Assembly (NCBI GenBank): GCA_965208435.1
Contig: OZ242337.1
Location: 1,422,100 to 1,454,099 of the forward strand
Direction of reading: 5' to 3'
Origin: Candidatus Aldehydirespiratoraceae bacterium
GTDB taxonomy: Bacteria > Actinomycetota > Acidimicrobiia > Acidimicrobiales > Aldehydirespiratoraceae
DNA length: 32,000 nucleotides
Within the stretch, counting starts at the first letter, position 1. Every line of letters starts with the position of its first letter. The position numbers were made by a program, and so were the translations under genes. Of this stretch, positions 9,354 to 27,180 are shown one piece after another. The notes beneath the pieces were generated by a model. That model ran no database searches. It worked only from the letters and a program-made list of their open reading frames with translations, and was not told where the DNA came from.

Positions 9354-10091
9354 TCATTCTCCTCTATTTGTTAATTGTTGAGACGCTAATGGGTCCAACA
9401 CGACCGTGACATTGGTGTGGAGTTGAATGGCTGAAGCAGGTACGGCATCGGAGATCGGACCCTCGACAGTTCGTGCTACGGCACTGGCCTTGCCCGCTCC
9501 GCAGGCCACAAGCAGCAGTTCGGACGCGGCAAGGATCGTGGCGATGCCCTGAGTCATTGCTCGGGTCGGGACAGAGTGCCCGGCCACAAAGAAGCGGGCG
9601 TTGTCCTCCCGGGTCTGCTCGCTCAGTTCAATGACTCGTGTGATGCTGTCGAACGGTGTGCCCGGCTCGTTGAAGGCGATATGGCCATTCGTTCCGATCC
9701 CGAGGATCTGCAGACCGATCGAAGCAGCCCGCACCTCCTGTTCGTAGCGTACGCACTCCGCTGTCAGATCCTGGGCCTGGGTGTTCGGACCATGCAGAGA
9801 GCCACTGCGCAGATCAACGTGTTGCGCGAACAGGCGGTGGACGACAGACCAGTAAGCATTGGGGTCGTACCGTTCCAATCCGACGTATTCGTCGAGCAGG
9901 TAGGCGTCAACGGGACGAAAGCTCAAACCCTGCCGTCGGTGACGACTCACGAGTTCGGCAAAAAGACCTTCCATCGTTTCACCGGTGGCGAGCCCCAATG
10001 CCGGCGACTCTGAGGTGGAGACGAATCGTTCGACGACACCCGCTGCTTCTCGTCCGACGCTGTCGGGGTCGTTGCAGACGATGATCCTCAT
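9354..10091 (-). CDS. nagB: Glucosamine-6-phosphate deaminase (NagB family)
   Basis: 245 aa. GLATGETMEGLF, ILGIGTNGHIAFNEPG and AIQLHTNVTVVLD are typical of NagB. ATGA overlap with the upstream kinase gene. Confidence 0.85.
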   Translation of the reverse strand: MRIIVCNDPDSVGREAAGVVERFVSTSESPALGLATGETMEGLFAELVSRHRRQGLSFRPVDAYLLDEYVGLERYDPNAYWSVVHRLFAQHVDLRSGSLHGPNTQAQDLTAECVRYEQEVRAASIGLQILGIGTNGHIAFNEPGTPFDSITRVIELSEQTREDNARFFVAGHSVPTRAMTQGIATILAASELLLVACGAGKASAVARTVEGPISDAVPASAIQLHTNVTVVLDPLASQQLTNRGE

Positions 10092-10951
10092 GGCGTCGCA
10101 GGGTCCCCAGTGCCTTGGCTGGTGCCCCTGGCTGCGACTGCGGCACCGACGATCCCGGCGTGCATACCGTTGCGAGCCACCGAGATCGGCTTGGAGAGCT
10201 CGAGCTTCGATGAGAACTGCTCAAAGTCGTCGCTGAGCCCACCACCGACGACCCACCGCGAAGGGTTGAGGATTGCCTGAAGTTCGTCGAAGAACGGTTG
10301 TGCACGCCTGGCCCACTCAACAGGGGTGAGCGCCTCAGTTGAGATGGCACGTCCCGATGCGACTTCCTCGAAACAGCCGTCCACGCCACTGAGACTGCCC
10401 AACTCGGAATCGGCTATGAGGTTGCCGTTGTGCAGCAGTGCACTGCCGATGCCGGTGCCGAACGTCAAGACGATCGTGAGGCCGGACTCGTCGAGACTGG
10501 CCTCGCCGTAGACCAGTTCGGCCAGTCCGACCGCGTCGGCGTCGTTGATCAGCACCGCATTGCCTCCGTTGGGGGCGCGCAGCCATGTCAACGCTTCTGT
10601 CTTCTCCCAGGAAGCGCAGAGATTCGGGGCGTGCCTCAAGCTCGATCCGCTGATCATGCCCGGCAGGGCGATGCCTACCGGACCGGTCCACTGCATCGCC
10701 GCAGCGATGCGCCGCGTCGCTGCGGCGACATCATCCGGGTTGGCTGTCGGCGGGGTCGGTTCGACAAGGGCTCGCCTCGTCAGTCTGCCCACTTCGAGAT
10801 CGACGATAGCCCCCTTGATGCTGGTACCTCCAACGTCGATGCCGAGCCACATTGTGGAGCCGTAATCCAGCGGGTGGGGCTGCTGGTCGTGCCCGTCCCC
10901 GTCACGGCTGCGAACAACCTCAGAACACCCCATCTCAATGTCGCGGCTCAT
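10088..10951 (-). CDS. ROK-family sugar kinase (polyphosphate/ATP glucokinase-like)
   Basis: 287 aa. The ROK ATPase N-terminal motif WLGIDVGGTSIKGAIVD follows an N-terminal extension. The M1 start is supported by an ATGA overlap with the upstream ABC ATPase stop. Confidence 0.75.
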   Translation of the reverse strand: MSRDIEMGCSEVVRSRDGDGHDQQPHPLDYGSTMWLGIDVGGTSIKGAIVDLEVGRLTRRALVEPTPPTANPDDVAAATRRIAAAMQWTGPVGIALPGMISGSSLRHAPNLCASWEKTEALTWLRAPNGGNAVLINDADAVGLAELVYGEASLDESGLTIVLTFGTGIGSALLHNGNLIADSELGSLSGVDGCFEEVASGRAISTEALTPVEWARRAQPFFDELQAILNPSRWVVGGGLSDDFEQFSSKLELSKPISVARNGMHAGIVGAAVAARGTSQGTGDPATP

Positions 10952-11751
10952 TCGTCGAGACCGGCGGTTCGAGCGCCCGTGATATAGGCGACAAGGTCGT
11001 CCTTGGTCACCTCACCGACATCGACATCTGCGATTTTCTGACCCTGACGCAACACGATGGCCCGGTCGCACACTGCCGTCACGCGTTCCATGTTGTGAGT
11101 GATCAACAACACGGCGACGCCCGAGTCCCGCAGGCTGCGGATCAACTCGAGCACACGGGCCGCCTGTTCGACGCCCAGCGCCGCCGCGGGTTCGTCGAGC
11201 AGCACGATCTGCTGTCCCCAAGCCACCGCCCGCCCTATCGCCACCGCCTGGCGCTGACCGCCCGACAGAGCATCCAAAGGCCTGCGCAGAGACGGGATGC
11301 GGATGTCGAGACGGCTCAGAATCTCATCGGACTCGCGCCGCATGCGCTTCTTGTCGAGCACGCCGACCAGCGCCCCGAGCCTGCCGCCGCGGGTGTGCTC
11401 ACGGTTGAGGAACAAGTTCTCCACCACATCGAGAGGATCGATCACCGCAAGCGTCTGATGGACCGTCTCAATCCCCAGCGTCCGCGCCGCCTCCGGCGAG
11501 GACACAGCACGCTCAACACCGTTGACACGCACCGTCCCGGCATCGGGCACATACACGCCGGAGATGCACTTGACCAAAGTCGACTTGCCCGCTCCGTTGT
11601 CGCCGAGCAGCGCCGTGACCCGCCCGTAGCGCAGGTCCATCGTCACACCATCGAGCGCCCGCACGGCGCGGAACGACTTGCGCAAGCCAGTGATCTCAAG
11701 CGCAACGGAACCCGGCTGTGCAGAACCCGGATCGGCAGGCACCGCGATCAC
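10948..11751 (-). CDS. ABC transporter ATP-binding protein (single NBD, sugar-type)
   Basis: 267 aa. Walker A GDNGAGKST, signature LSGGQRQ and Walker B LLDEP. Confidence 0.9.
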   Translation of the reverse strand: MIAVPADPGSAQPGSVALEITGLRKSFRAVRALDGVTMDLRYGRVTALLGDNGAGKSTLVKCISGVYVPDAGTVRVNGVERAVSSPEAARTLGIETVHQTLAVIDPLDVVENLFLNREHTRGGRLGALVGVLDKKRMRRESDEILSRLDIRIPSLRRPLDALSGGQRQAVAIGRAVAWGQQIVLLDEPAAALGVEQAARVLELIRSLRDSGVAVLLITHNMERVTAVCDRAIVLRQGQKIADVDVGEVTKDDLVAYITGARTAGLDE

Positions 11752-12959
11752 CGCTGCCCACCGCCGAGCACGACAGGATCACCGAAACAGTTCCACACAC
11801 CCGCCACCCGAGGCTCGCCCCTCGACACGCCCTCAATCCCGACAACGAACGCCCTCGTCACAAAGGCCTGCACACGGAAGCCGAAGACCACCGTCGCACC
11901 CTCAGCCACGGTCCGCCCGCCCTCGGGGTGAAGCTTGGCGTAGTAGTCGATCGCGGCCGGATCGGGCATGTCCGCACGCACCGGGTCAGTCGAGGCCTCA
12001 GACGGGTCGTGCGCCACAACAGCCCGAACCTCGTAGTCGGCGAAGACCGGGTCGATGTAGAGCCCGCCGCCGAAACAGAACGGCACTCCCTGATGGACAT
12101 GGGCCACCTCGCTCAAGTACAGCACCGCCGGCTGCTCAGGCAGATCACCCACCGCATGCAACGGGGTCGTGCCGGTCAGACCATGTCCCGGTTCCACCTG
12201 GGTGCCGCCCGAGTCCGCCAACAGCCCCAGAACCTCAGTCGAGGTCGTCCCGGGCAGATTGAGCTCCAGACGCTCAGGGCTCGCAGGATGCCGACTGGCG
12301 ATCTCCGCAGCCCGGGCCAGGGTCTCAACGTTGCGGGTGGAGCGCACCGCCCCAGTCTCAGAAGAGAACAGCAGCGCCGGAAACGTCGTGAGTCCGGCGA
12401 ACTCCACACCCTGAAGCGAGGCGATGCGGTCGATCATGGCGGGCAGATCGTCCAACAGGACACCACCCTCATGGCCGCTGTAGAACTCGTCGCCCGGATC
12501 GAAGACCCGCACCAACAGCCGCTGCGAACGCCCGCTGGCACGAGCCGCAAAAGCAGATTCAACAGCTTTGTTCGCCGAGAAGACCGTCCAATAATCGGGC
12601 TCAAGGCCGGCGGCCTCAGCAGCCTCGGCTCTCGGAACCTGGACCAGATGGCCCAGATGGCCGAGCCGGTGACCGTTGCGGGCGATGGGCCGGGCACACG
12701 CCATGTCGACCGCGACGAACCCGTCGGCGCCGCCGCGCGCCATGGCAGCGAGCGCGCCCGGCGCCCGGCCGATCTGCTTGGTCATGGCGTAGACGGTCAG
12801 GCCCAGGTCGTGCGCCCGTCCACACAACAGGGCAGTGTTGGCCTCAATGGTGTCGAGGTCGAGCACACAACTGTTGGCTGGAATCCGCCCGGCCTGGTGG
12901 AGCCCGACCGCCGCCTCGACGAAACGCGGATTGTGCTCGAGAAGGGACCGAAGGAACAC
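11748..12959 (-). CDS. YhfX-like / alanine-racemase-N-domain PLP-dependent enzyme
   Basis: 403 aa. The N-terminus MFLRSLLEHNPRFVEAAVGLHQAGRIPANSCVLDLD and the candidate PLP-lysine context YAMTKQIGRAP resemble the YhfX family as I recall it. The gene sits between the permease and ATPase genes. Confidence 0.55.
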   Translation of the reverse strand: MFLRSLLEHNPRFVEAAVGLHQAGRIPANSCVLDLDTIEANTALLCGRAHDLGLTVYAMTKQIGRAPGALAAMARGGADGFVAVDMACARPIARNGHRLGHLGHLVQVPRAEAAEAAGLEPDYWTVFSANKAVESAFAARASGRSQRLLVRVFDPGDEFYSGHEGGVLLDDLPAMIDRIASLQGVEFAGLTTFPALLFSSETGAVRSTRNVETLARAAEIASRHPASPERLELNLPGTTSTEVLGLLADSGGTQVEPGHGLTGTTPLHAVGDLPEQPAVLYLSEVAHVHQGVPFCFGGGLYIDPVFADYEVRAVVAHDPSEASTDPVRADMPDPAAIDYYAKLHPEGGRTVAEGATVVFGFRVQAFVTRAFVVGIEGVSRGEPRVAGVWNCFGDPVVLGGGQR

Positions 12960-12960
12960 C

Positions 12961-13962
12961 TCAACTCTCTTTCTGTTCTCGCATACTCAACGACACGGCC
13001 AGGATGATTATCACTCCCCGGGCGATCTGTTGGTCCGAAACCCGCAGGCCCCAGAGGATCAAGCCGTTGTTCAGCATCGCCATGACAACCGACCCAGCGA
13101 CAGCGCCCGCCACTGAGGCCCGCCCGCCGAAAAGGTTGGTCCCCCCGATCACGACGGCCGCGATCACCGTGAGCAACAGGTTCTCACCGAGGTCATGGCG
13201 ACCGATGGCAAGCCTGCTGGCGAGTAGCACACCGGCGAACGAAGCCGCCGCCGCGCTCACAACCAGGGCCGAAATACGGACCCGGTCGGTATTGATGCCC
13301 AGCGCCTTGGCCGCCGAGCGATCAGAACCCACCGACAGCACATGGCGACCCCAGCGCAGCTGATGCAGAGCGAAATGACCCAGAAGCCCGACCACCGCAG
13401 TCCAGATGAGCAGCGACGAGACCGGGCCGACAGAGCCCGATCCGAAGATCTCCCGGAAGGCGTCGTTGCGAATCGGCAACGACTGAAGGTTGTTCATGTT
13501 GCGGGCGACTCCGCTGACGATCCCGAGCATCCCCAACGTCACAAGGAATGAAGGGATGCGCACCTTGACGGTGATGAACCCGTTGATGAGCCCGATGCCG
13601 GCACCGACGGCCACTGCTGCCAGAGTGCCCGCAACGAAACCGTGGCTGCCCACGACCTCCGCGGCGACCAACGACGACAGAGCAGCAACCGAACCGACCG
13701 ACAGGTCGATCTCCGAGGACGCCAAGGCGAAGGACATGCCCACCGCCATGACCGCGATCGGCGCCGACTGGCGTCCGATGTTTATGAGATTGGAGGAAGT
13801 GAGGAACCCATCGTCGTGCAGAAACACGGCAAACAGCAGGAACACCAGTACCGCAGCCGCGTACACAACGTAGTGACGCAGCTCTGCGTGCTGTCTCCAA
13901 CCGTCGATCCGCGCACGCGCCCCTGAAGGGAGAAGAATGGCGGCGCGCAAATCCCGGTTCAC
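12961..13962 (-). CDS. Sugar ABC transporter permease (RbsC/AraH-like)
   Basis: 333 aa, multi-span hydrophobic protein with the typical branched-sugar permease pattern (GGTNLFGGRASVAGAVAG). Confidence 0.85.
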   Translation of the reverse strand: MNRDLRAAILLPSGARARIDGWRQHAELRHYVVYAAAVLVFLLFAVFLHDDGFLTSSNLINIGRQSAPIAVMAVGMSFALASSEIDLSVGSVAALSSLVAAEVVGSHGFVAGTLAAVAVGAGIGLINGFITVKVRIPSFLVTLGMLGIVSGVARNMNNLQSLPIRNDAFREIFGSGSVGPVSSLLIWTAVVGLLGHFALHQLRWGRHVLSVGSDRSAAKALGINTDRVRISALVVSAAAASFAGVLLASRLAIGRHDLGENLLLTVIAAVVIGGTNLFGGRASVAGAVAGSVVMAMLNNGLILWGLRVSDQQIARGVIIILAVSLSMREQKES

Positions 13963-13987
13963 GATGGGTTCCTCAGATCAAGCCGAC

Positions 13988-15196
13988 TCAGCCGAGGGCA
14001 TCCAGAACCTCTTGGGGAGGATCGTCGGCCAGCGACTGGCGATACCCCTCCTCGATGTTGTCGGCCGTGACCCCGATGGCCGGAACCACCACGAAGGCAG
14101 GCGCCGACTTGCCGAGCACCCCGTAGGCGCCCTCGAGGGCCATGGTGCGTCCGAGGTTGTACGCCTCATCGGCGGCGATGCCGACGACATTGCCCCCCTC
14201 GACCATGTCGAGCGACACGTTGGTATCGAGGTCCATGGTCACGACCGCCACATCGGAGGCGCCCGCGGCACGCAGCGCAGCGATGACGCCATCGGCCGGA
14301 CCCGCCGACCACGGTGCATAGATGCCGTCGAGGTCAGGGTTGCGGGTGAGCAGCGCGGAGGCGATCTCCTCAGCTGCGGCCGGGTCCGCCAACCCCTGCT
14401 CGGCGACAATCTCCATGTCCGGGTAGTTGGCCTCGATCCAGGACTTGAAAGCCTGGTCCCGCTGGTTGGTCACGTAGTAGGCCGCGTCGTGGAAGATGAA
14501 GCCCACTTCGCCCTGCCCGCCGAGCGCGTCAGCGAGCAGATCAGCCGCAGTGATGCCCATCGCCGCAAGGTCGTCGGTCACGATGCCGACATAGTCCTCG
14601 CCGTGAACGTAACCCTGGGGAACGTTGGACAGGAACACCAGCGACACTCCGGCGTCCACAGCCGGGCGGAACGCCTCGGCGCCCGCATCGGGGCCGATCG
14701 CCAGGCTGATAATGATGTCGGGGTCCTGGGCCATGACGGTCTCAACGTCATTGGCCTGCTGAGCTGCGTCGAAACCGGCGTCGGTCTCCGCAATCACGTT
14801 GATCCCGAGTTCCGCGAACGCGTCGCGGGCCCCCTGGCTCACCGCATCCGTGAAAGCACCGGAGGTGTGCCACAGCAGCGCTGCTGTGTATTCGCCCGCC
14901 TGAACTTCGGCGATCTCGGCGTCGTCGAGGCTTATCTCGCTCGCCGCTACGGCCTGCTCGCCGCCGGGCCCCTGGGTAACGGGCCGCTCGGGCTCGGGCT
15001 CGGGCTCAGGTTCCGGCTCGGGCTCAGGTTCCGGCTCGGGCTCGGGATCAGGCGCGGCGGTGGTGGTAGTGGCAGCGTCTGATGAAGTATCATCGTCATC
15101 GCTGTCATCGCCGCATGAGGCGGCGAAGACTGCGAACACGGCGATCAGCGACACGAGTAGCAGCCACTTGGGTATCTTGTTTCTTGGTTGTTTCAT
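13988..15196 (-). CDS. Sugar-type ABC substrate-binding lipoprotein with a (PE)n linker
   Basis: 402 aa. Signal peptide plus lipobox (FAASC), an acidic/Thr-rich segment, PDPEPEPEPEPEPEPEPEPEPE, then a periplasmic-binding-protein type I fold pattern. Confidence 0.85.
   Translation of the reverse strand: MKQPRNKIPKWLLLVSLIAVFAVFAASCGDDSDDDDTSSDAATTTTAAPDPEPEPEPEPEPEPEPEPEPERPVTQGPGGEQAVAASEISLDDAEIAEVQAGEYTAALLWHTSGAFTDAVSQGARDAFAELGINVIAETDAGFDAAQQANDVETVMAQDPDIIISLAIGPDAGAEAFRPAVDAGVSLVFLSNVPQGYVHGEDYVGIVTDDLAAMGITAADLLADALGGQGEVGFIFHDAAYYVTNQRDQAFKSWIEANYPDMEIVAEQGLADPAAAEEIASALLTRNPDLDGIYAPWSAGPADGVIAALRAAGASDVAVVTMDLDTNVSLDMVEGGNVVGIAADEAYNLGRTMALEGAYGVLGKSAPAFVVVPAIGVTADNIEEGYRQSLADDPPQEVLDALG
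14987..15050 (-). repeat. Hexanucleotide-type tandem repeat encoding the (Pro-Glu)n linker
   Basis: ctcgggctcgggctcgggctcaggttccggctcgggctcaggttccggctcgggctcgggatcagg is read directly from the sequence. Confidence 0.9.
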
Positions 15197-15217
15197 GGTC
15201 CCCTCCTTTGGGTCCAG

Positions 15218-16465
15218 TTATGGATCAGCAACCCCGCACCACTGCGCGATGAAGTGGGCGAGCGTACGCGTGGCAGTGACCAGTTCGTCTACGGCCAGCC
15301 GCTCGAACGGCGTGTGACAGTGGGAAATGTCTCCCGGAGCGAAGTAGACGCCGGGAATCCCCAGCTCCCGCAGAAACGGCTTCTCCGACCAGTAGGGGGC
15401 ACCCTCGATCCGAGCGCCCTCTCCGGTCACCTGTTCAATCGACCGGGCCAACACCGCAACCCCCGGATGGTCGACGTCCAGTTCGTCGGGCGTCCCTCCG
15501 AAACGGTGGTCCCGCGGCGCGCTGAACTCCACTGTGCAGTCCACTGAGTGCTCGTCGGCGATCTGTTGGGCGATGGTTCCGATCCGCCCGGCGGCGGTGT
15601 CGAGGCTCTCACCGGGAAGCACCTTGCGGATCAGTGACAGCTCGAAGCGTCCCGGCACCGCGATGTTGCCTCCCGAGGTCACCGAAGTGACCAGCAGGAA
15701 CGCCTCCCCGAGCAGATCATGTGCAGCGACGCCTGAGCGCAGTTCCTCGGAATGGCTCCAAAGCCCCTCCAGCAGGCTGTGGCCGGCCTTGAGAGCGTCC
15801 ACACCGAGCTCCGGGCGCCCGAAGTACGCGGACACCCCGGTATAGCCGATATCGGCTATCAGGAATCCCATCTGCGCCGTGTAGATCGCCGATGTCGTCG
15901 GCTCCGTGTAGATCGCGAAGTCCGCTTCGGGCCATTTCCCGTCGCGGTCCTTCACCGCGGCGCGCATCCCCGCGGACACGCCGCTGCCGGGCTGTCCCGA
16001 CTCCTCGTCGCACACGAACAGCGTCGAGACTCTGCCAGCGGGCCGCAGGCCGACCCTCTCGAATGCGCGGACCGCCTCGATGATCGCGCAGATCCCCGCC
16101 TTCTGGTCCGCGACCCCGCGTCCCCAGATGGCGCCGTCGATGATCGGCGAGGCGAACGGGTCCTCACGGTCGGTTCCCTGCCAGTGCTCCGTCCAGTCGT
16201 CGGTCGCCACCGTGTCGAGATGCCCGGCCAGCAGCAGCGACCGCCCCGAGCCGCCCCCGGCCGAGCCGTGCACATTGGGTCGTTTCGGGGCGCATTCCAC
16301 CAGTTCGGACTCACCGAACACCTCGGACTCGTTGATTCGACCGAAGACCCAGTTGGCGAAGGCCTCCTCGTTGGGAGTCACACTGGGGATCCGAACTGCT
16401 TCGCGCACGAGTTCTACGAGCGCATCGCTGTCGACGGCGCCTGCGACCTCTAAAGCAGCGCTCAT
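15218..16465 (-). CDS. M20-family metallo-amidohydrolase (ArgE/DapE/ACY1-like)
   Basis: 415 aa. Metal-binding patterns LLLAGHLDTV, GRGVADQKAG and CDEESG, and a C-terminal HCHTPFERL, are typical of M20 deacylases. Confidence 0.8.
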   Translation of the reverse strand: MSAALEVAGAVDSDALVELVREAVRIPSVTPNEEAFANWVFGRINESEVFGESELVECAPKRPNVHGSAGGGSGRSLLLAGHLDTVATDDWTEHWQGTDREDPFASPIIDGAIWGRGVADQKAGICAIIEAVRAFERVGLRPAGRVSTLFVCDEESGQPGSGVSAGMRAAVKDRDGKWPEADFAIYTEPTTSAIYTAQMGFLIADIGYTGVSAYFGRPELGVDALKAGHSLLEGLWSHSEELRSGVAAHDLLGEAFLLVTSVTSGGNIAVPGRFELSLIRKVLPGESLDTAAGRIGTIAQQIADEHSVDCTVEFSAPRDHRFGGTPDELDVDHPGVAVLARSIEQVTGEGARIEGAPYWSEKPFLRELGIPGVYFAPGDISHCHTPFERLAVDELVTATRTLAHFIAQWCGVADP

Positions 16466-17655
16466 CTCTGCTGGTCTCCCAAGATCTCTGTGACCAGGGA
16501 CTCATGCACGGAACGCAGAGACATCGACACCGCTCCTACCAGAGCTGCCCGGCGGCCCAGAGTCGATGCCGAAAGCTCGGGAGGCGGGTCGACCAACCGG
16601 GAGAGGTGCAACCGGACTGCGTCCACGAACACCGGGTTGCTGCCCACACCTCCGCCGAAAACGACATGCCCGGGGTCTGCGATCAGACACAGGTGCGATA
16701 CCGCCAGCGCCATGGCCCCTGCCACCTCGTCGAGCACGGACCGCGCCGCATCGTCGCCCGCTTCAACGGCTTCGAATATTTCCGGCACATCCGCGCTGGG
16801 GTCGAGCGCGGAGCGGAGCCCGTCCTCGATCGCGCGTCCGAACAGCTTGCGGATCGAGGGCGCGGAGGCCACATCCTCGAGGGTGACCGGCACCGCGCCG
16901 GGGGCGGGCAGCGACAACAGCAGGGAGCCGACCTCGCCCGCAGATCCGGTGCCGCCCCGGTATAGGTCTCCGCCGACCACCATTCCCAGACCGATACCCG
17001 TGCCGACGGAGATTGCCGCGAAGTCCCTGTCGGGCTGTCCGGCCCCCATCTGAGTCAATTCGCCCAGCGCAGCCAGGTTGACGTCGTTCTCTATGTGGAC
17101 ACGACCGTCCATGCGCTCTGAGAGGAACTCGTGCACCGCCAGACCGTCGAACCCGGGCAGGTTGAGGGCCTGTTCCACGCGGTCGCGGTCACGCCGGTAT
17201 ATTCCGGGCACTCCGATGCACACGCCGCTGCAGGGTCCGTCAATGCTCCGAAGCATCTCAGTGGACGTGCCGACGAGACCATCCAGCGCCGTCCGGGCAT
17301 CGGGACCCGTCTCCACCTCGCACTCGACGACCAGATTGCCCAACAAGTCGCAGACACCGACCAGCATCTTCGTGGCGCCGATGTCGGCGACCACTGAGTG
17401 CCGGGCCGTCGGAACCAGTTCGTAGAGGGCGGCAGGGCGGCCGATCGAACCAGACTTGGGGCTGTCGTTGGCGACTCGGACCAACCCTGCGGACTCCATG
17501 TCAGCGACCAGCGCCGACACAGTCGGTTTGGAGAGGCCGGTGGATCGGGCGATCTCGGCCCTCGACATCCTTCGGGGGTGTGACGCGAACAGTGCGTCAA
17601 CAATCCGTTGGCCACTGATCAGCCTCAGTACAGCGCTTCCAGACCCTTCGCTCAT
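16462..17655 (-). CDS. ROK-family transcriptional regulator
   Basis: 397 aa. N-terminal winged HTH (MSRAEIARSTGLSKPTVSALVADMESAGLV) followed by a ROK sugar-binding domain. It is the first gene of the operon. Confidence 0.85.
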   Translation of the reverse strand: MSEGSGSAVLRLISGQRIVDALFASHPRRMSRAEIARSTGLSKPTVSALVADMESAGLVRVANDSPKSGSIGRPAALYELVPTARHSVVADIGATKMLVGVCDLLGNLVVECEVETGPDARTALDGLVGTSTEMLRSIDGPCSGVCIGVPGIYRRDRDRVEQALNLPGFDGLAVHEFLSERMDGRVHIENDVNLAALGELTQMGAGQPDRDFAAISVGTGIGLGMVVGGDLYRGGTGSAGEVGSLLLSLPAPGAVPVTLEDVASAPSIRKLFGRAIEDGLRSALDPSADVPEIFEAVEAGDDAARSVLDEVAGAMALAVSHLCLIADPGHVVFGGGVGSNPVFVDAVRLHLSRLVDPPPELSASTLGRRAALVGAVSMSLRSVHESLVTEILGDQQR

Positions 17656-18587: not shown

Positions 18588-19739
18588 CTAGATCAAGGGC
18601 TGAGGTACCATCCATAGATTTTCGGCGGACCGCCGAAAGAAACCCGCGGGATGCTGTTCTTGCGCCGCCTTCATACGTTCGGCATTCAAGTTCTTTGGGT
18701 TTGCTTCGGTCATTCGAAGCGCTTGAAGACCACCGCAGACTACTTTCGCCGAATACCAACCGAGCCTTTGCGCTCCAATAGGCAACCGGGGTGTTAGATC
18801 CACTGCAAAGGCTGGTCCAGCGGTGCGTTCCATCTCGTTCGCAAGTTCAGCGAGAGTCAGTGGTCGTCCATCTGTGTGATTCGACGCGGGCGGCACGAAC
18901 GCGTCAACCCACTCCCGGAGCGACTGATTCGCTTCCTCAGAAGTCCAGTACTTCGCGCGAGTGAGGTCATCGACAACGTGCCGTGGCGGCACCTGGCCAT
19001 GGGCCGTGAAAACACCGCGGAGCACGCAAAGGACCTGGAGGGCCTCACGAAGCGCTCGGCAACTACCCTCGAGACTTGAGTATGAGATCGCGGCACCTAC
19101 CGCACTGGCCGGCGCCGGACCAATGACACAACCCACGAAAGCGCTGTACCCCGGGATTGGGGTCGCCATACGAGCGATCACAACGTCGGTATCTTGTTCT
19201 TCAGCGCTCGTCAAAAGGCGGTCCATGCTGCTTGATCCTCGGTGTTCAGCGAGATCGACTCGTTCGAGTCTGGCTTGAAGATTCCACGCGACCATCACCG
19301 CATCCCGTTCAACGAGTTCGAGCAGGCCCGACCGTATGGCGGCTTCAAGACTTGGACCGGATGCCGCGCCAGACGGCGACGGGTCAACCGTCGCATTGGT
19401 GTTGATGTCAAGTGGATAGTCCACCTCGACCTCGGGGACATCGACGGTCTGTTCCCAGTCCGAAAGCCTGAAGCCAGAATATGACGTTTCGCGGAGCGCG
19501 CTCGGAAAGAGCGAGCGGCGCTCAACCGCCTCCCCAACGCCACGCAGAATCGTGTCGTGCCGGGTCAGACCCGCCGCACCAACCAGCGCTAGGGAGTGTG
19601 CCTCGCTATCAGTTGCCCCGTTTCGGCCGATATTAATAGCAAGAGTCCACAGCCTACAGTTCTCAACGCACGGCGGGTAGAGCGTGGCGCTGCTGGCCAC
19701 ACCTACCGACGGCTCCAGGGTTTCGAGGTATTTTATCAC
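18588..19739 (-). CDS. YcaO-domain protein (ATP-dependent backbone-amide activating enzyme)
   Basis: 383 aa. GVGEAVERRS, SGAASGPSLEAAIRSGLLELVERDAVMVAW and a Pro-rich C-terminal tail (...WMVPQPLI) fit the YcaO pattern. The GTG start overlaps the upstream gene's TGA (GTGA at 19736-19739). Confidence 0.8.
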   Translation of the reverse strand: MIKYLETLEPSVGVASSATLYPPCVENCRLWTLAINIGRNGATDSEAHSLALVGAAGLTRHDTILRGVGEAVERRSLFPSALRETSYSGFRLSDWEQTVDVPEVEVDYPLDINTNATVDPSPSGAASGPSLEAAIRSGLLELVERDAVMVAWNLQARLERVDLAEHRGSSSMDRLLTSAEEQDTDVVIARMATPIPGYSAFVGCVIGPAPASAVGAAISYSSLEGSCRALREALQVLCVLRGVFTAHGQVPPRHVVDDLTRAKYWTSEEANQSLREWVDAFVPPASNHTDGRPLTLAELANEMERTAGPAFAVDLTPRLPIGAQRLGWYSAKVVCGGLQALRMTEANPKNLNAERMKAAQEQHPAGFFRRSAENLWMVPQPLI

Positions 19740-20995
19740 GTCGCCCCGTTCTCGGAAGCTCTCGGCACTCCAACGGATGCTTCATGCAGAATGGCTTCGA
19801 CATCCTCAACCGTGAATCGGCTCAGCACAGGGCGCGGGGCACCCCAGCGATCAATGATCGTTTCCGCCAGCGTGTGGATTTCGGCTTCAGAGAAATCTAG
19901 GTCGGTGCCTGATGGGTGACGTAGCAATTGCTCAAGCTCCTCAGCACCCGAAAGACCGAGTGCTTGAGTCACCTCACAGACCCTACCTGGAAAGCCCCAC
20001 CGGTCGTCGCCGGTCACAACGCGCCGCAGCCAAGGGCCGACTAGCGCGCTGGTCGCCTTGACCTTCCTGATTCCGGCGATCGTCGCCATTTCGTTGGCGA
20101 CGAACCACAGGGGCGATCCGATCGGAGGTCGCCCCTTCAGGGCAGCAGAGGTGTGCGTCGATGCGCTCAGCCAACCAGATGTAAGACGAGCATCGGTATC
20201 ACACAGTCCGGTTTCGGGGAGGCGCAGCATCAGCGCCAGCGATCTGAGGAGACTCTCTGCGACGATGTCTGGGATCGTCAGCTTGTACGGCGTGTTAACC
20301 ACCGGGCCGAGGATCCGCACGAATGCCTCGAACAGCCCCTCCCAAACGGATGTCGCGCTGAGCGTTGATGTTGCAACGCTGTCCAGAATCGCCTCATCAA
20401 AGTGTAGAGATCGTCCCCGGAGCAACAGTCTCTGATCCTGGATCCTCAAACAGGCAACAGAACTCACCTCACTCCCGGTGCCCACCGTTGTCGGAATCGC
20501 TACGAACCAGCGATCATCTCGGTGAGTCCGTTCGACGGTCAACAGGCTGCTTCGCTGTGCTTGCTTTCTCCATCGCCCGATCTGGCTCGGACTCGTGCTC
20601 GCGATGCGCGCGAGTTTTGCTACATCAAGGGTGTTTCCACCGCCGATCGCCAGCACCGTGGTTGGCTTGAGATCAGCCAACCAACGGGCAACCCTTTCGA
20701 TTTCGGACAGATCGGCATCCGGCGCGACTTCAATAACCGGACCCCGGTAACTATCGCTGAGCCACGGGCCGAGCAATGGCATGCGGCTGACCACCTTATC
20801 AACCGCGACCGCGTCAAGGTTCACCGTTGCGAGTGCTCGAAGAATCGAGTTGTCGCCGACCGTGAGCTTTTGACTGATCTGTTGCCAAGGTTCGCCCGGT
20901 TGGCGTCGAGCGACATCAAGTTTACGTCGCAAGTACGTACTCCACCGCTTCGAACGCAAGATCCAGCATTTCATCAAGTTCCTCCGAGGACGCAA
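19736..20995 (-). CDS. Iron-containing alcohol dehydrogenase / dehydroquinate-synthase-like enzyme (candidate oxidative decarboxylase)
   Basis: 419-aa ORF with LAIGGGNTLDVAKL and IPTTVGTGSEVS. The longest ORF overlaps the aminotransferase 3' end by 74 nt, so the true start is uncertain. The in-frame ATGs I located are at 20995, 20974 and 20782. Confidence 0.7.
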   Translation of the reverse strand: MRPRRNLMKCWILRSKRWSTYLRRKLDVARRQPGEPWQQISQKLTVGDNSILRALATVNLDAVAVDKVVSRMPLLGPWLSDSYRGPVIEVAPDADLSEIERVARWLADLKPTTVLAIGGGNTLDVAKLARIASTSPSQIGRWRKQAQRSSLLTVERTHRDDRWFVAIPTTVGTGSEVSSVACLRIQDQRLLLRGRSLHFDEAILDSVATSTLSATSVWEGLFEAFVRILGPVVNTPYKLTIPDIVAESLLRSLALMLRLPETGLCDTDARLTSGWLSASTHTSAALKGRPPIGSPLWFVANEMATIAGIRKVKATSALVGPWLRRVVTGDDRWGFPGRVCEVTQALGLSGAEELEQLLRHPSGTDLDFSEAEIHTLAETIIDRWGAPRPVLSRFTVEDVEAILHEASVGVPRASENGAT

Positions 20996-22178
20996 CGAAT
21001 GCGGGAACCAATTGAATGCAGGACGGTCCGGGCTGAACGATTACCCCGCGGCGTAACGCCTCAGTGACGATCTCGCCTACTCGTTGTGGCTCAACGATCG
21101 TCCCTTTCTCATCATGGAGCACAACCGCACGGAATAGCCCGGTGCCGCGCGTGCCTGCAACAAACCGGTTTGAAGCAGAACGCTCAGCGAGCCCGTTGCA
21201 GAGCTGCTCGGCTAACGCCTGGCGTCGCGCTTCAGCGCCGTATTCGATGTGCTGTTGGATTGAGGCGATCATTGCAGCACAAGACGGGGGGGTTCCAGCC
21301 TGCGTCTCGCCATGCACGAATGCGGCGTCGGCGGCGGAGAAGCGCTCACTGACGCGTTCCGACCAAAGAACGGCTGAGGCAGCAGCGGCGCCATTGGTCA
21401 GAGCTTTGCTGAGAACCAACACGTCGGGAGTCACTGGCCAAGTTGAATGCGCGAATAGAGGACCGGTGCGGCCAAACCCTGTGGCGACCTCGTCGGCGAC
21501 AACCAGGACTCCGTACTGTCGCTTCGCTTCAAGGATTTCAAGCAACAACTCCATCGGAGGTTCAATCGCCCCCGAGCCAAGCAACGGCTCTAGCACGACG
21601 GCGGCTACCGAGTCGCCTGAATGGGCAATGAGTCGTCGAAACTCGTCGGCAGATCCCACAGCAACGTGGCGCACATGTCGCTGGTCAGCCCCGTACAAGA
21701 GCTGACCGAGATTTTCTCCTGAAAGCGCCACAGCTCCGAGCGTCGTACCGTGGTAGCTGCCCTTCATGCTGACTACCAACCGGCGTTGGTGCGCCTGCTC
21801 TAGGTTCCAGAACTGCCGCGCAACCTTGATCGTCGCATCAATAGCGGCCCCACCAGATGTCGCAAAGAGGACACGTTGGAAATTGGGCCCGGCTAGCGTC
21901 AGCAAGAGATGGGCCGCCTCCTCGGCAAATCTATGGTTGTAGCGAAAGAGTGTCAGGTATGAAGCTTCGATGAGGGAGGAGTGCACCGCGTCCGCGACCT
22001 GGCGGTTCCCATAGCCAAGGCTGACGTTCCAGAGACCGCTCGTCGCACATAGGCGTCTTTGGCCGTCCAGAAAATCAACGCGGACGCCATGTGCACTGAC
22101 GGCCATTCGCAGAGGGGGCGAAGAAACACTCGGCGGCGTGAAGAACTGAACCACCGAGCTCTCGGTATGCTCACTCAT
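20922..22178 (-). CDS. Class III PLP-dependent aminotransferase
   Basis: 418 aa. SGLWNVSLGYGN, ATSGGAAIDATIKVAR, VVADEVATGFGRTGPLFA and VLSKALTNG (PLP lysine). Its start overlaps the methyltransferase stop by 8 nt. Confidence 0.88.
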   Translation of the reverse strand: MSEHTESSVVQFFTPPSVSSPPLRMAVSAHGVRVDFLDGQRRLCATSGLWNVSLGYGNRQVADAVHSSLIEASYLTLFRYNHRFAEEAAHLLLTLAGPNFQRVLFATSGGAAIDATIKVARQFWNLEQAHQRRLVVSMKGSYHGTTLGAVALSGENLGQLLYGADQRHVRHVAVGSADEFRRLIAHSGDSVAAVVLEPLLGSGAIEPPMELLLEILEAKRQYGVLVVADEVATGFGRTGPLFAHSTWPVTPDVLVLSKALTNGAAAASAVLWSERVSERFSAADAAFVHGETQAGTPPSCAAMIASIQQHIEYGAEARRQALAEQLCNGLAERSASNRFVAGTRGTGLFRAVVLHDEKGTIVEPQRVGEIVTEALRRGVIVQPGPSCIQLVPAFVASSEELDEMLDLAFEAVEYVLAT

Positions 22179-22632
22179 CGTGTTCCTTTAGGTAAGTGGT
22201 CACATACAGCCGTCGATCCTCGATGTGGTGCTGAGCAGCGGCTATGCACGTTCGTGACGCGATTAATAGGCCTCTCAGCTCCGCTTCCCGGTCAACGGTG
22301 TCCTGAGTAAGAATTCTTGTCGATGTCGTCCAAACGCGAATCGGTCGTGCGTTTGAAGCGACCGTCACATGACGACGAAGGGCCTCCGTGTCGACATACT
22401 CGAAGAGGGTGAACTCCTCGTCGCCGAGATCGATCACGGTGGTCGACTCCTGAGACAAGGACTTGGGTAGATCGACTTCGAGCAAAGAAAGAACGAAGCG
22501 GCCTCCGGGCCGTAGCATCTTCCACACTCGGTCGAAACAGTCACTGCGGTCCTCAGCAGACAGGAGGCTGATCGAGCTCGTACCGACAACTACGACATCA
22601 GCCCCTGAGTCCAGGCAGAACTCCTGCATTAG
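22171..22632 (-). pseudogene. Class I SAM-dependent methyltransferase, C-terminal part (separated by IS insertion)
   Basis: The ORF MQEFCLDSGADVVVVGTSSISLL...LRPGGRFVL carries motifs II and III only. It is in frame with the N-terminal part once the IS and one target-duplication copy are removed. Confidence 0.85.
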
Positions 22633-24245
22633 CCTGGATCCACCGGTGGGGTTGGGTTGTTGGTGTGTTCGCGTCCGCGGAAAAGGCCTCCTGGTCTGCG
22701 ATGATTGTGATGACTAAAAGTCACTTTCGTCACAAAAACAGGAGGCACTTTTCGTGTCTGTATCATCGCGCAGGTTGGACCGGTTGGCAACAACGTTTGA
22801 TCATGAGGGCCTGGTAGCGAACGCGGGCCTGGTTCTGGCTGCGACGTTGTTCGCTCGTTTGGGTCTGTCGGGGTTGATCAAACGGTGGGTGGACACTGGT
22901 TCGCCGAACCCGGACCGCAAGGTTTTGACGGTGGTCGCAGCGATGCTGGCGGGTGGCACCCATATTGATCATGTCGACATGCTGCGCGCCGGGCGCACTG
23001 GCAGCGTGTTGGGGTTTGCCCCCGCGGCGCCGTCGACGGTGGGAACGTTTCTGCGGACCTTCACGTTCGGTCACGTCCGCCAGCTCGAAGCGGTGGCCTC
23101 GCGGGTTTTGGCGCGGGCCTGGCAACTCGGCGCAGGCCCGGGCTCTTCGCCGTTGGTGGTGGATCTGGACTCCACGGTCTGTGAGGTGCACGGCAAACTC
23201 AAGCACGGCGCCTCCTACGCCTACACCAAAGTGTTGGGCTATCACCCGCTGCTGGCTGTGCGTGCGGGCACCTCTGAGGTGCTCGGAGCGCGGATGCGCA
23301 AAGGCTCCGCTCACTCATCGCGTGGTGTGCTGCGCTTCGTCGATGAGCTCATAGCCAACCTCAAACGCGCGGGTGCTGCCGGGCCGGTCACGATACGCGC
23401 CGATTCGGGGTTCTGGTCCTGGGGGCTGATCGACCGTCTCAACACTGTTGACGTGAAATGGTCGATCACCGTGTCGCTGAACTCTGCTGTCCGCGCCGCT
23501 ATCGAGACGATCGGCGACAAAGCCTGGGTTGACATCGACTACCCCAAAGGGGGCCACGCCCAAGTCGCCGAAACCCTCTATACCACCGGCCGCGGCAAAC
23601 AACGCCGCACCGTGCGCCTCGTGGTGCGCCGCACCCGCCTCACCGACCGCGCCCAGCAACGGCTCTGGCCCAACTGGCGCTACCACGCCTTCATCACCAA
23701 CAGAAACGACCTCAGCACCGTCACAGCAGACCAATTCCACCGCAACCACGCAGTCGTCGAGCTCGCCATCCGCGACCTCAAAGAAGGCTCCGGACTCAAC
23801 CACATCCCCTCCGGGCACTACCCAGCCAACTGTGCATGGCTCGCCTGCGCCGTGCTCGCCCACAACATCGGCCACTGGACCGCCATCCTCACCAACACCA
23901 CACCAGCCACCAACCAAACCCGCCGCACCCGCCTCACCGCGCTGCCCGCCGTGCTCGTCAACCGATCCGGCACACACACCCTGCGATACCCCACCCGCTG
24001 GCGATGGCAAACCCAATTCACCAACACACTCACCAAACTACGAAACCTGCCCGGACCCTCCGGCTAACCCCCACCACCCAAAGGAACCCGGCACCCTCCA
24101 GCACACACCCAGCGCCACCAACCCAACCCAACCCCTGAACCCTGAACCCAACACGCCCCAACACACCAAACCCAGTCCCAAACACCCAACCCGACACCCG
24201 CCCACCAACCACCCCACCCACCAACACCGAATCGGTGGATTCAGG
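22633..24245 (+). mobile_element. Intact IS1380-family insertion sequence (1613 bp)
   Basis: Terminal inverted repeats CCTGGATCCACCGG (22633-22646) and CCTGAATCCACCGA (reverse complement of 24232-24245) match at 12 of 14 positions. It is flanked by the direct repeat ATTAG (22628-22632 and 24246-24250) and contains one transposase ORF plus a C/A-rich 3' tail. Confidence 0.85.
22754..24067 (+). CDS. IS1380-family DDE transposase
   Basis: 437 aa. GTG start 8 nt after GGAGG. VLGYHPLLA and the overall layout are typical of IS1380-family transposases (from recall). Confidence 0.8.
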   Translation: MSVSSRRLDRLATTFDHEGLVANAGLVLAATLFARLGLSGLIKRWVDTGSPNPDRKVLTVVAAMLAGGTHIDHVDMLRAGRTGSVLGFAPAAPSTVGTFLRTFTFGHVRQLEAVASRVLARAWQLGAGPGSSPLVVDLDSTVCEVHGKLKHGASYAYTKVLGYHPLLAVRAGTSEVLGARMRKGSAHSSRGVLRFVDELIANLKRAGAAGPVTIRADSGFWSWGLIDRLNTVDVKWSITVSLNSAVRAAIETIGDKAWVDIDYPKGGHAQVAETLYTTGRGKQRRTVRLVVRRTRLTDRAQQRLWPNWRYHAFITNRNDLSTVTADQFHRNHAVVELAIRDLKEGSGLNHIPSGHYPANCAWLACAVLAHNIGHWTAILTNTTPATNQTRRTRLTALPAVLVNRSGTHTLRYPTRWRWQTQFTNTLTKLRNLPGPSG

Positions 24246-24595
24246 ATTAGGCCCGTTTCAACGCTGAGGTTACTCCGTCGCCGAGAGAGGCGCGGATCCG
24301 CGTCAATTGTCTCTTCTAAGAAGCGGAGCATCTCTGGCGAGTTATCGACAGCGATCACTTCGGCACCTATTGCGAGAAGTGCCTTCGTGATCCTCCCCGA
24401 ACCGGCTGCAAGCTCCACGACGCGGGTCCCGCGGCCCCCGCATGCCCGGATGATCTCTGGAAGCTCGGAACGATCGTTCTCAGTCAGGTGGTGGTAGAAC
24501 GAGGCACCAGCAACGTACATATCGCCTCGTCGCTCAGCCGAGCAGCGGGCCCACGCGATGCCGCCTCGACCCGGCGGATCGGCTACGGGGGTCAT
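24246..24595 (-). pseudogene. Class I SAM-dependent methyltransferase, N-terminal part (separated by IS insertion)
   Basis: Motif I VVELAAGSGRITKALLAIGAEVIAVDNSPEML. ATGA overlap with the upstream gene. The reading frame runs into the IS end at 24245. Confidence 0.85.
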
Positions 24596-25599
24596 CTCGT
24601 TTCGTCGCAGGATAGCCGGTCTCCAAGTATCTGGGCCTGGACCATCTCACAGCTTTGGACAGCTTGAAGTGATGGGATGCCGAACACACTTGAGATCGCT
24701 TCGATCGCTTCAGTTCGGCTCGCTGTTCCGAACATGATTTCTACGATCGTGGCTGCATCTGGGGGTGCTTTGAGGACCTGGCCAGTCACCGGGTTTGCGA
24801 CCAGATGATCACTCCCATCGAAGAGCACGATCGGAGAGTCGGGACGCTCGGTTGGCAGCTTCGGCAGTACTCCTTGGGTCGTTCTGTAACCGAAGCCACT
24901 GACGAGGGGCATCTCCTTGACGTGTCTCGTCGACACCCGGCGCATGACACCTAGGACGGCTAGGTAACGGCCGAGCCATGGTCGCTCGCTGGTTCCTCGC
25001 TGCAGCTCAGTCCGCGTAGCGGCCTCTGAGACACACCGCTCGGCGGTTCCACCAAAGTAGCTCGGCTGCGTCGACCCATCTTTCCCAACAAATCGACGGG
25101 CACCTGAGGCACTGGCACAGGTGCGCGAGGAACTCAGCGCGCATTCGTCAGCAAACGCAACATAGGGGTGAAGTAGGTGCGGTCGAAAGACGCCTTCGTC
25201 GACGGCATCGTCAGCATCGGCGAGGAAATCCGCGACATCCTCAGTCGAGTGGACCGTGAAAAGGGTTGGGCCGGTGGTCGGAATGTAGGCCCCTGTCGCG
25301 TACGCAAACGAGGTCACCGAGAGGCCGCTGGAGAGCGCAAGTTCGTCGCCGTCGAAGTTGAGCGACCCCGTGTATGTGGCGATGTCGCCTCGAGAATTGA
25401 CGCGGCCCACTAGCTCTTCGGGGACAAATATCAGGCTGGTGGCCGGCAGATCCAGCGATTCAAGTACCGCAGCCGGTGCTCCCGGAAGTATGAGTACCTC
25501 CTTGGGGAACGTGGACACCGAACCCGGTCCATTGTCATACGTGCCGGTCAGCACTCGCTGAAGCCGCATCGCAGCATCTTCTCTACCACTACCCAGCAT
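24592..25599 (-). CDS. Unannotatable protein with a C-terminal PqqD/RRE-like peptide-binding domain
   Basis: 335 aa. I do not recognise the first ~255 residues. The last ~80 (DHLVANPVTGQVLKAPPDAATIVEIMFGTASRTEAIEAISSVFGIPSLQAVQSCEMVQAQILGDRL) follow the PqqD-like RiPP-recognition-element pattern. AAGGAG lies upstream of the ATG. Confidence 0.65.
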   Translation of the reverse strand: MLGSGREDAAMRLQRVLTGTYDNGPGSVSTFPKEVLILPGAPAAVLESLDLPATSLIFVPEELVGRVNSRGDIATYTGSLNFDGDELALSSGLSVTSFAYATGAYIPTTGPTLFTVHSTEDVADFLADADDAVDEGVFRPHLLHPYVAFADECALSSSRTCASASGARRFVGKDGSTQPSYFGGTAERCVSEAATRTELQRGTSERPWLGRYLAVLGVMRRVSTRHVKEMPLVSGFGYRTTQGVLPKLPTERPDSPIVLFDGSDHLVANPVTGQVLKAPPDAATIVEIMFGTASRTEAIEAISSVFGIPSLQAVQSCEMVQAQILGDRLSCDETR

Positions 25600-25611: not shown

Positions 25612-27180
25612 TTAACTTGTTAGAGATTCGATTGCCGGCTGAACCACACGTTGCCTTGCCCAGCTGCTTGGTGACAGGCCAGGCTGATGCGCGACTGAGC
25701 GGAGCGCCGCCTCTCGTGGTGCCAGCTCCGATATGAGCTCGATCGGAACACACTGTGCCTTAGAGGTCAGCGCCAACCCGGTTATCGGGACGATGGCCTC
25801 GAGTGGGGTTTCGCAGGACACGGCCGGACCAGTGACGCGCGCTCGGCCTAGTTCAGCTCCAAGCACCAGCCCGCCGCTGTGGATGACAATTTCCATCCCG
25901 ACGTCGATCCCGTCCTTGCTCACTGTTCCCGTCGGGAAGACGACAAACCAATTTCCATCGGTTTGCGTGACGCCACCGACGTAGCGGTTGTCTATCGTGG
26001 TAAACGACAGCGCGGCCGACACGCCCAGCACAGCCACGAGCAACCAGCAGGCCGCTCGGAGCGGTCTTGCTCCTTCTCGCAACACTCTGACGGTCCGGCG
26101 GACCGCGATCCGAAGTGCATAGAAAGAGAGACCAGCGATTAGCGCGAATAGCGCCGCCGCGCCAGGCTTTTCCAGTGCCATCAGCAGGGATCGAATGGCA
26201 ATGATCGCATACATGATGAGCACGATGGGTACAACGAGAGACACGAATCCAAACATGGGTGTCCAGCTGCGGGTCGGCTCCCTGCGGGGACCGCCCAGCA
26301 GTCGAAACGACACCCAGGCCCAGAAGTCGTCAATTGATTTCCTGCGGAGATGTGAGATATCAAGCCATGTGGCGAGAGCCAAATATCCATCCAGCTTGAC
26401 GAAAGGTACAAGGTTGAATAGTGCGAACGCGTAGCATGCGAGACCAAATACCACGAGACCTGTCACGAGTTCGCCGCTGACCGCGTAAGCCAACAAGACG
26501 GCAACGCCTCCCATGGCAGCATGGGCACCAACTCCTGCGAGAGCCACCGCGACTCGTTGGCGCGGCTCAAGCCGCCATGCGCCGGTCACATCACAGAAGA
26601 ACGCGGGCGAGAGGTAGAAGAGCATCACGCCCATCCGCCGAGGTGACTCGCCATAGGCCATCAGGGCGCCGGCATGTGCCATTTCGTGAACGAACGTCGA
26701 AAAAAGGAGCGATATCAATATCGCGGCATACACCTCGATCGAAATGGACGACCCCAGGGAATCGTCAACCAGCTGTCGATTCGTACCGAGGAGAATCAGT
26801 CCCGCGCCGGCAATCGAAAGAAAGAGAAGCCTGATTCTGGGCCTGAGAACGGCGCGAGCGACGCTAGCTAACCAACGCAGCCGAACGGATGGATCAAGGA
26901 GACTGATCTGCAGCGAGAACGGTGGCCGGAACTGAACGCGCTTTGGGCGGATCTCAGCGCATTCGGACAAGAGTTCAAGCCTCTCGAGTTGCCCTCTAGT
27001 CGCCCCCACGAGGGCTGGAAACCATGGCGGCCCGAGGAGTTGCGACACCTCGCTATCTGATATCGTTGGAGCTTGGATCAAGATGTCACGCACCCGTGAA
27101 GCGTCATGCCCGATCCGAACAAACTGGCCGTTGGCTGTCTCGACCAACACGGCTGGGGTTGCCTGATCAGGAGCGGTCAT
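25612..27180 (-). CDS. M50-family (site-2-protease-like) membrane metalloprotease with a C-terminal extracytoplasmic domain
   Basis: HEMAH and NLVPFVKLDGY motifs within multiple TM segments. I set the start at the internal ATG at 27180, which forms an ATGA overlap with the permease stop. The 610-aa track ORF would overlap the permease gene by 268 nt. Confidence 0.8.
   Translation of the reverse strand: MTAPDQATPAVLVETANGQFVRIGHDASRVRDILIQAPTISDSEVSQLLGPPWFPALVGATRGQLERLELLSECAEIRPKRVQFRPPFSLQISLLDPSVRLRWLASVARAVLRPRIRLLFLSIAGAGLILLGTNRQLVDDSLGSSISIEVYAAILISLLFSTFVHEMAHAGALMAYGESPRRMGVMLFYLSPAFFCDVTGAWRLEPRQRVAVALAGVGAHAAMGGVAVLLAYAVSGELVTGLVVFGLACYAFALFNLVPFVKLDGYLALATWLDISHLRRKSIDDFWAWVSFRLLGGPRREPTRSWTPMFGFVSLVVPIVLIMYAIIAIRSLLMALEKPGAAALFALIAGLSFYALRIAVRRTVRVLREGARPLRAACWLLVAVLGVSAALSFTTIDNRYVGGVTQTDGNWFVVFPTGTVSKDGIDVGMEIVIHSGGLVLGAELGRARVTGPAVSCETPLEAIVPITGLALTSKAQCVPIELISELAPREAALRSVAHQPGLSPSSWARQRVVQPAIESLTS

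Follow-up and report, generated by a model that had tools for sequence, protein, structure and literature searches.

YcaO proteins are frequent secondary genes of daptide biosynthetic gene clusters (BGCs) (Ren et al. 2023), and the daptide YcaOs, DapY, were characterised as an 'Mmp cyclodehydratase' by Dommaraju et al. (bioRxiv July 2025, PMC12338566; ACS Cent Sci 2025;11:2143, PMC12670281). In this pathway, DapBC converts the C-terminal Thr of the precursor to aminoacetone by oxidative decarboxylation, DapD transaminates aminoacetone to 1,2-diaminopropane (Dap), and DapM methylates the new amine (PMC12338566 / PMC12670281). TfDapY of Thermobifida fusca and SaDapY of Streptomyces azureus cyclodehydrate the resulting terminus with ATP/Mg, both in vitro and in vivo, so that the mono-methylated intermediate becomes 3,4-dimethylimidazoline (Diz, M-49), and the product without DapM is 4-methylimidazoline (Miz, M-63) (PMC12338566 / PMC12670281). 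Here, we describe a gene for a stand-alone YcaO protein at positions 18588..19739 (minus strand) of a 32,000-nucleotide stretch of contig OZ242337.1 from a Candidatus Aldehydirespiratoraceae bacterium; the whole stretch is called the window below.

Three further published results define what a DapY enzyme needs. TfDapY alone formed Miz from purified Dap-terminated substrate, and formed Diz when DapM was added; no DapY product was obtained unless Dap was already installed; and Miz was not a substrate for methylation by DapM (PMC12338566 / PMC12670281). In the published work, the Miz terminus was seen in vitro only, never in vivo (PMC12338566 / PMC12670281). Since Miz arises from purified substrate and DapY alone, no partner protein is required. 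Hence, the puzzle posed by a preliminary description of the window, that of a partnerless YcaO acting on Cys-free peptides, is already solved by the 2025 work on enzyme class, substrate and product. That description also tied the YcaO to an oxidatively decarboxylated C-terminal Thr and called this unprecedented; the tie is right, but the chemistry has a precedent in the published DapY (PMC12338566 / PMC12670281). Its suggestion that the YcaO borrows the RiPP (ribosomally made, post-translationally modified peptide) recognition element (RRE) of the neighbouring protein in trans is not needed, because TfDapY did without one.

We found that the window YcaO is a divergent addition to the known DapY enzymes, in an insertionally damaged daptide cluster. 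By sequence, the protein is a member of the DapY family, and we infer its activity from that membership. We put at about 85% the probability that this is a dapY gene, encoding the tailoring YcaO of a daptide BGC, and that it acts by the pathway known from its homologs. The window YcaO aligns with TfDapY at 32% identity (E 2e-37, residues 1-362) and with SaDapY at 32% identity (E 1e-34, residues 1-383, including the tail, PHPLI in SaDapY and PQPLI in the window); both reference sequences come from a machine reading of Table S4 in the paper, in which a few optical character recognition errors may remain. In a purely distance-based phylogeny (neighbour-joining, with the bootstrap run on a subset of the sequences), the clade that unites TfDapY and SaDapY with the window group and with 45 context-verified daptide YcaOs was recovered in 96 of 100 replicates, and the long, low-scoring YcaOs fell outside it in all 100. 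A 20-member subclade that joined the window group to P0028 and P0032 in the first neighbour-joining tree was not reproduced by the subset bootstrap and was dropped.

The genomic context of the homologs agrees with this placement. DapC, DapD and DapP are encoded nearby on the same strand at 46 of the 49 homolog loci listed from species-representative genomes, a GTDB genome scan whose list holds no close relative of the window, no T. fusca and no S. azureus; all but two of these 46 also show DapM, and two of the exceptions among the homolog loci are truncated contigs. At most homolog loci, the encoded precursors end in Thr and carry an ELE..EAP leader, and the terminal Thr is the sole conserved residue of the family cores. 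Even distant members are linked to daptides: P0032 has a DapD-DapC-YcaO arrangement, and P0020 belongs to a cluster from Cellulomonas that also encodes a RamC-like (lanthipeptide-type) enzyme. Outside the daptide clade, the nearest YcaO lineage (P0101, at 8001..10115 of locus L057) is preceded by a 67-amino acid (aa) open reading frame (ORF) and followed by a nitroreductase gene; with this azole-type context, the DapY family reaches its boundary. All homologs of the window YcaO are from Actinomycetota. The window lineage itself is small and stands apart: it is a single cluster among 1.84 billion 50%-identity cluster representatives, where the next match scores 166 bits and 40 clusters are found at E <= 1e-30.

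The gene is intact and its product retains the known motifs and the fold of a YcaO. The 383-aa protein matches the Pfam family YcaO PF02624 (E 9.4e-21, 74.9 bits, cut-off 25.7) with an alignment that spans profile positions 90-324 only; the N-terminal third is missed because the segment from the ExxER helix to SPSGAA has just 46 aa. The GTG start at 19739 shares its TG with the stop TGA (19738..19736) of the Fe-ADH gene, dapC, so that the junction reads gcgacGTGAtaaaa and the start context ...acGTGAtaaaa; this overlap, from which the preliminary description rightly assigned the YcaO to the operon, indicates translational coupling to dapC. The protein begins with MIKYLETLEPSVGVA, in line with the N-terminus conserved among its homologs (MIDV..TL.P..G), which shows that the start call is correct. 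The alignment also bears out the binding residues on which the preliminary description had made its reading depend: the acidic ATP/Mg motifs are intact and family-invariant (G69-E70-A-V-E73-R74 and E141-L-V-E144-R145-D146), as are the SPSGAASG and REALQ (E232/Q235) motifs, and every invariant position of an 18-member family alignment is kept. In alignments, they match CEAVER, ELVERD and TEVNQ in LynD, TruD and MjYcaO.

The AlphaFold2 model of the window YcaO is a complete YcaO fold (predicted local distance difference test score pLDDT 89, predicted template modelling score pTM 0.90), and all 41 of its significant structural matches in the PDB are YcaO proteins. Template modelling scores (TM-scores) to LynD, MkYcaO, MjYcaO and McbD are 0.6-0.7, and the E. 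coli YcaO is the weakest match (TMq about 0.5). The ratio of nonsynonymous to synonymous substitution rates (dN/dS) of dapY is 0.27 relative to a 93%-identical relative (L050), and falls in the range of the remaining genes of the cluster (0.14-0.36).

Several observations weigh against assigning the window YcaO to DapY. It is no more than 32% identical to the characterised enzymes; the published network used an alignment score of 50 as its threshold, and our estimate for the window-TfDapY pair is about 33 (from 127 bits), making a direct link improbable. The window group forms a long branch whose placement within the daptide clade has 34% support. The segment from the ExxER helix to SPSGAA is short relative to the family median of 76 aa (range 35-98), and the C-terminal tail, PQPLI, has Gln in place of the near-universal His of P-H-P-L-(P/I/V), with both prolines kept. 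Among its partners, DapC scores 225 bits (E 1e-66) with the NCBIfam model daptide_DH NF041822, which is below the equivalog cut-off of 300. Finally, dapD, dapC and dapY come downstream of an insertion sequence (IS), which possibly silences them, so the strain perhaps contains no DapY substrate.

We considered whether the short segment, an apparent deletion of about 43 aa, marks a degenerate enzyme and rejected this, given that it is the most length-variable segment of the family (35-98 aa) and is shorter still, at 35 aa, in the context-verified daptide locus L009. As for the tail, the family holds 43 PHPLP, 40 PHPLI (including the active SaDapY), 10 PHPLV and 5 PQPLI tails. As judged from the alignment, neither segment length, nor tail, nor isolation costs the window YcaO a known catalytic residue.

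The YcaO family also includes enzymes with other chemistries, and sequence comparison with solved YcaOs does not discriminate between them. With the single sequence as query, the top match among solved YcaOs covers 80 residues at E 3e-4, which is insufficient to place the protein, and a profile search matches the azoline enzymes LynD, TruD and MusD about as strongly as the thioamide enzymes MjYcaO and MkYcaO (1e-17 to 1e-13). The closest curated hidden Markov model is that of the SagD/TOMM (thiazole/oxazole-modified microcin) enzymes, TIGR03604, aligned to the profile end, and together with the C-terminal PxPxx tail and the Ser and Thr residues of the cores this could point to a canonical azoline cyclodehydratase that forms oxazolines from Ser36, Thr39 or Thr43 of the unmodified peptide. 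We regard this as very improbable: TIGR03604 scores 81.1 bits against a cut-off of 219.25, the window has no E1-like/Ocin-ThiF partner, fused RRE or dehydrogenase, the characterised DapY homologs give no product unless Dap is installed, and only the terminal Thr is conserved in the cores across the family. The missing partners had been noted in the preliminary description, and our Pfam and NCBIfam scan of the sizeable ORFs of the window likewise returned no E1/ThiF/Ocin-ThiF-like protein, no TfuA and no nitroreductase-type azoline dehydrogenase. Its statement that the precursors lack Cys, which excludes thiazoline chemistry, is equally correct (zero Cys in both), and the three hydroxyl residues lie where it placed them. 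From the absence of Cys, it proposed oxazoline, thioamide or amidine chemistry. Of these, amidine comes closest, as an imidazoline is a cyclic amidine; the Ser/Thr hydroxyl does not hold as the nucleophile, which would instead be an amine made via DapB/C, DapD and DapM.

A stand-alone protein of about 380 aa also has the size of thioamide- and macroamidine-forming enzymes, and its profile matches to MjYcaO and MkYcaO rival that to LynD. A thioamide-forming or bottromycin-like macroamidine-forming YcaO nevertheless has a negligible chance of being correct, since the window holds no TfuA or sulfur-delivery gene, TIGR03266 (McrA thioamidation) scores 30.1 bits against a cut-off of 365, the context is daptide-specific, the protein falls within the DapY clade, and the leader is still attached during modification, which leaves no free N-terminal amine on the core. 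An E. coli-type housekeeping YcaO, the outcome that would have undone the preliminary description, was rejected, as TIGR00702 scores 15.6 bits against a cut-off of 75.65 and the gene is coupled to dapC. Hence, we retain DapY as the assignment.

Judged by sequence, the minus-strand operon from 29367 down to 18588 is a daptide BGC with two Thr-terminated precursors, an ATP-binding cassette (ABC) exporter, DapP, DapB, DapM, DapD, DapC and the YcaO, in that order (Table 1). The starts of dapC and dapP were taken from the gene calls of L050; the longest ORFs reach 20995 and 27444, respectively. Precursor A2 carries the leader motif ESLEAP and the C-terminal Thr found in precursors of more than 40 DapY loci, and A1 is below the cut-off for both NF041805 (20.8 bits) and NF041808 (19.5 bits). 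The small hydrophobic protein has no Pfam or NCBIfam family match, is conserved in all close relatives, and may be an immunity or accessory membrane protein. Apart from dapM, the cluster ORFs in the window are intact and equal in length to those of the relatives; the intact 268-aa DapM of relatives L050 and L051 matches NF041820 with 182 bits (cut-off 175).

Table 1. Features of the daptide cluster in the window (coordinates in window positions)
Feature	Coordinates	Strand	Assignment	Basis
dapY	18588..19739	-	Predicted C-terminal imidazoline-forming cyclodehydratase; stand-alone YcaO, 383 aa	Pfam, DapY identity, fold, clade
dapC	19736..20974	-	Putative Fe-ADH-family oxidative decarboxylase of C-terminal Thr	Pfam Fe-ADH; 91% identical to L050
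dapD	20922..22178	-	Putative class-III aminotransferase (aminoacetone to 1,2-diaminopropane)	NCBIfam daptide_amino NF041821, 494 bits (cut-off 450)
dapM 3' fragment	22171..22632	-	Disrupted methyltransferase	Collinear with intact 268-aa dapM of L050/L051
IS1380-family IS, 1613 bp	22633..24245	+	Inside dapM; transposase 22754..24067	
dapM 5' fragment	24246..24595	-	S-adenosylmethionine-binding part	Pfam Methyltransf_25/11/12; collinear with L050 dapM
dapB	24592..25599	-	Putative RRE accessory protein, DapC partner	NCBIfam daptide_RRE NF041823, 162 bits (cut-off 150)
dapP	25612..27180	-	Putative intramembrane HExxH metalloprotease (leader removal)	NCBIfam daptide_HExxH NF041824, 316 bits (cut-off 300)
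ABC exporter	27177..28657	-	Permease 27177..27923; ATPase 27926..28657	Pfam ABC_tran, ABC2_membrane_4; gene order as in L050/L051
68-aa hydrophobic protein	28667..28873	-	Between precursors and ABC transporter	Called in L050, L051, L055
Precursor A2	28965..29141	-	58 aa, ends ...GVAIT	NCBIfam daptide_123 NF041808, 26.7 bits (cut-off 25)
Precursor A1	29188..29367	-	59 aa counted from MTIVD, ends ...GVAVT	Leader near-identical to A2; L051 ortholog

By analogy with the homologs, DapB (the RRE protein) and DapC (with NAD+) would turn the C-terminal Thr of the precursor into aminoacetone, which DapD would transaminate to Dap, and an intact DapM would methylate the new amine once (Mmp). DapY, on its own and with ATP/Mg2+, would then activate the final amide of the backbone (at the carbonyl of residue Ile57 in A2 and Val58 in A1), the new amine would attack the activated carbonyl, and phosphate would be eliminated. 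The ring formed would be Diz, or Miz if the amine is unmethylated. DapP would cut the leader after ...ESLEAP, and the peptide would leave through the ABC transporter; by the ELExxxxx cleavage rule, the cores are predicted to begin at WGWGSFF.

The methylation step is where the window cluster is damaged. We set the bounds of the IS by comparison with the empty site of L050; the site is empty in L051 too. The element has imperfect 13-bp terminal inverted repeats (CCTGGATCCACCG / CCTGAATCCACCG) and lies between the two copies of a 5-bp target duplication, ATTAG (22628-22632 and 24246-24250); its transposase matches NF033539 IS1380 with 280 bits and Pfam DDE_Tnp_1_4. Because DapY without DapM gives Miz, and Miz is not a substrate for DapM, we expect at most Miz- or Dap-terminated peptides; the predicted end product would thus be Miz or the free primary amine as long as transcription still reaches the genes downstream, and otherwise none. 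Just as well, a polar effect of the IS on dapD, dapC and dapY could shut the pathway down.

Whether the gene is silent in this strain concerns its activity here and not the identity of the enzyme, and we give silence, with a decaying cluster, a substantial chance that falls somewhat short of even. The splitting of dapM by an IS with a target duplication, upstream of dapD, dapC and dapY, speaks for it, as do IS debris at the precursor end of the cluster and lesions in the copies of the relatives, namely an ABC ATPase of only 162 aa in L055 and L056 and an ABC-ATPase::YcaO fusion (P0005). Decay is harder to reconcile with the intact remaining ORFs of normal length, with dN/dS values of 0.14-0.36, which indicate purifying selection at least until recently, and with the apparent recency of the insertion, whose duplication copies are identical and whose flanking dapM fragments are otherwise undisturbed. 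A weak promoter-like site faces out of the IS end (22790..22762, minus strand), but such sites are no commoner than chance; a consensus promoter and terminator scan gave the same counts as shuffled sequence and is uninformative on IS polarity. We consider it unlikely, on this analysis, that the strain is a natural dapM knock-out whose daptides end in Miz, provided that dapD, dapC and dapY are transcribed; as a separate element of that proposal, the long-branch lineage might prefer the primary amine or differ from TfDapY and SaDapY in substrate scope.

Elsewhere in the family, Cellulomonas chengniuliangii (L052; CP101988.1, 1384279-1405559) carries a hybrid daptide cluster with a RamC-like enzyme (RamC_N/Pkinase, faint LANC_like) and a glycosyltransferase. 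This cluster ends in Fe-ADH and YcaO genes, and a methyltransferase was not seen among the genes called from the precursors to the YcaO. For that reason, it may be a natural producer of an unmethylated imidazoline.

Two relatives of the window cluster, L050 and L051, come from ENA metagenome assemblies and have 93% YcaO protein identity and 93-94% cluster DNA identity, and the gene order of the window is kept in L050, L051 and L055. The same 9-kb cluster has different chromosomal neighbours: in both the window and L050 these are gpmA and the dnaK operon; in L055 they are prs, pth, mfd and the gene for ribosomal protein L25. Copies of the relatives are damaged: the ABC ATPase is cut to 162 aa at 2682..3170 of L055 and 401..889 of L056, and in P0005 (221 aa, on a 39-kb contig) the N-terminal 120 aa of the ABC ATPase are fused directly to YcaO residues 176-276, which implies that everything between the two genes was deleted. 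The differing chromosomal sites and the damaged copies suggest that the cluster moves as a unit, is mobile and decays easily.

Two neighbouring regions of the window were also noted. Upstream of the precursor genes, 29842..31718 is IS debris, in which an IS630-like element (HTH_23 ORF 30373..30984, DDE_3 fragment 31359..31718) apparently interrupts what is left, at the N-terminal end, of a second DDE_Tnp_1_4 (IS1380-like) transposase; by blastn, the debris is not a copy of the IS in dapM. At the other side of the cluster, a low-GC patch (8001..10000; 0.52-0.53 vs about 0.64 elsewhere) borders on a block of sugar-utilisation genes (about 8.6 kb, 8113..16700), which L050 and L051 lack at the corresponding place. 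The patch contains a minus-strand ORF, 8232..9347, whose 371-aa product starts like a signal peptide and matches no Pfam or NCBIfam family.

With enzyme class, substrate and product established in 2025, the discovery value of this locus is low. Its use lies in a compact (383 aa), 32%-identical lineage that widens the sequence space for engineering C-terminal imidazoline installation, and in the IS-disrupted dapM, which, set against the intact L050 and L051, lets the outcomes of the pathway with and without methylation be compared in nature. The locus also illustrates an annotation gap: as the NCBIfam daptide models do not include one for DapY, such YcaOs are annotated simply as 'YcaO-like family protein'.

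Compared with known systems, the window cluster resembles the Microbacterium paraoxydans daptide BGC (mpaA-BCDMPT; Ren et al. 2023) in its core genes, precursor architecture and Thr chemistry up to the diamine; unlike the window, the mpa cluster lacks a YcaO gene, and its pathway stops with the dimethylamine (Dmp). The bottromycin YcaO (BmbE/PurCD type), like the window protein, is stand-alone, uses an amine nucleophile and forms an amidine, whereas its product, by description, is an N-terminal-amine macrocycle and not a 5-membered C-terminal ring, and its gene context is unrelated. With the azoline TOMM cyclodehydratases (SagD/BalhD/McbD and the fused LynD/TruD), the window YcaO shares the fold (TM 0.6-0.7 to LynD and McbD), the ATP/Mg motifs, the proline-rich C-terminal tail and the logic of ATP-dependent cyclodehydration; it differs from them in lacking an E1-like/Ocin-ThiF partner and an RRE, in its TIGR03604 score far below cut-off, and in its predicted nucleophile, a post-translationally installed amine in place of Cys/Ser/Thr, and target, the very last amide bond. 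TfDapY and SaDapY differ from it by its long branch, 32% identity, a segment about 30 aa below the family median, the tail Gln and the disruption of its cognate dapM. Like both of these enzymes, however, the window YcaO is a stand-alone protein, encoded by the last gene of a dapB-M-D-C operon whose precursors end in Thr, and it shares with them the N-terminus MI..L.TL.P..G, the catalytic motifs, a well-supported clade and, with SaDapY, a PxPLI tail.

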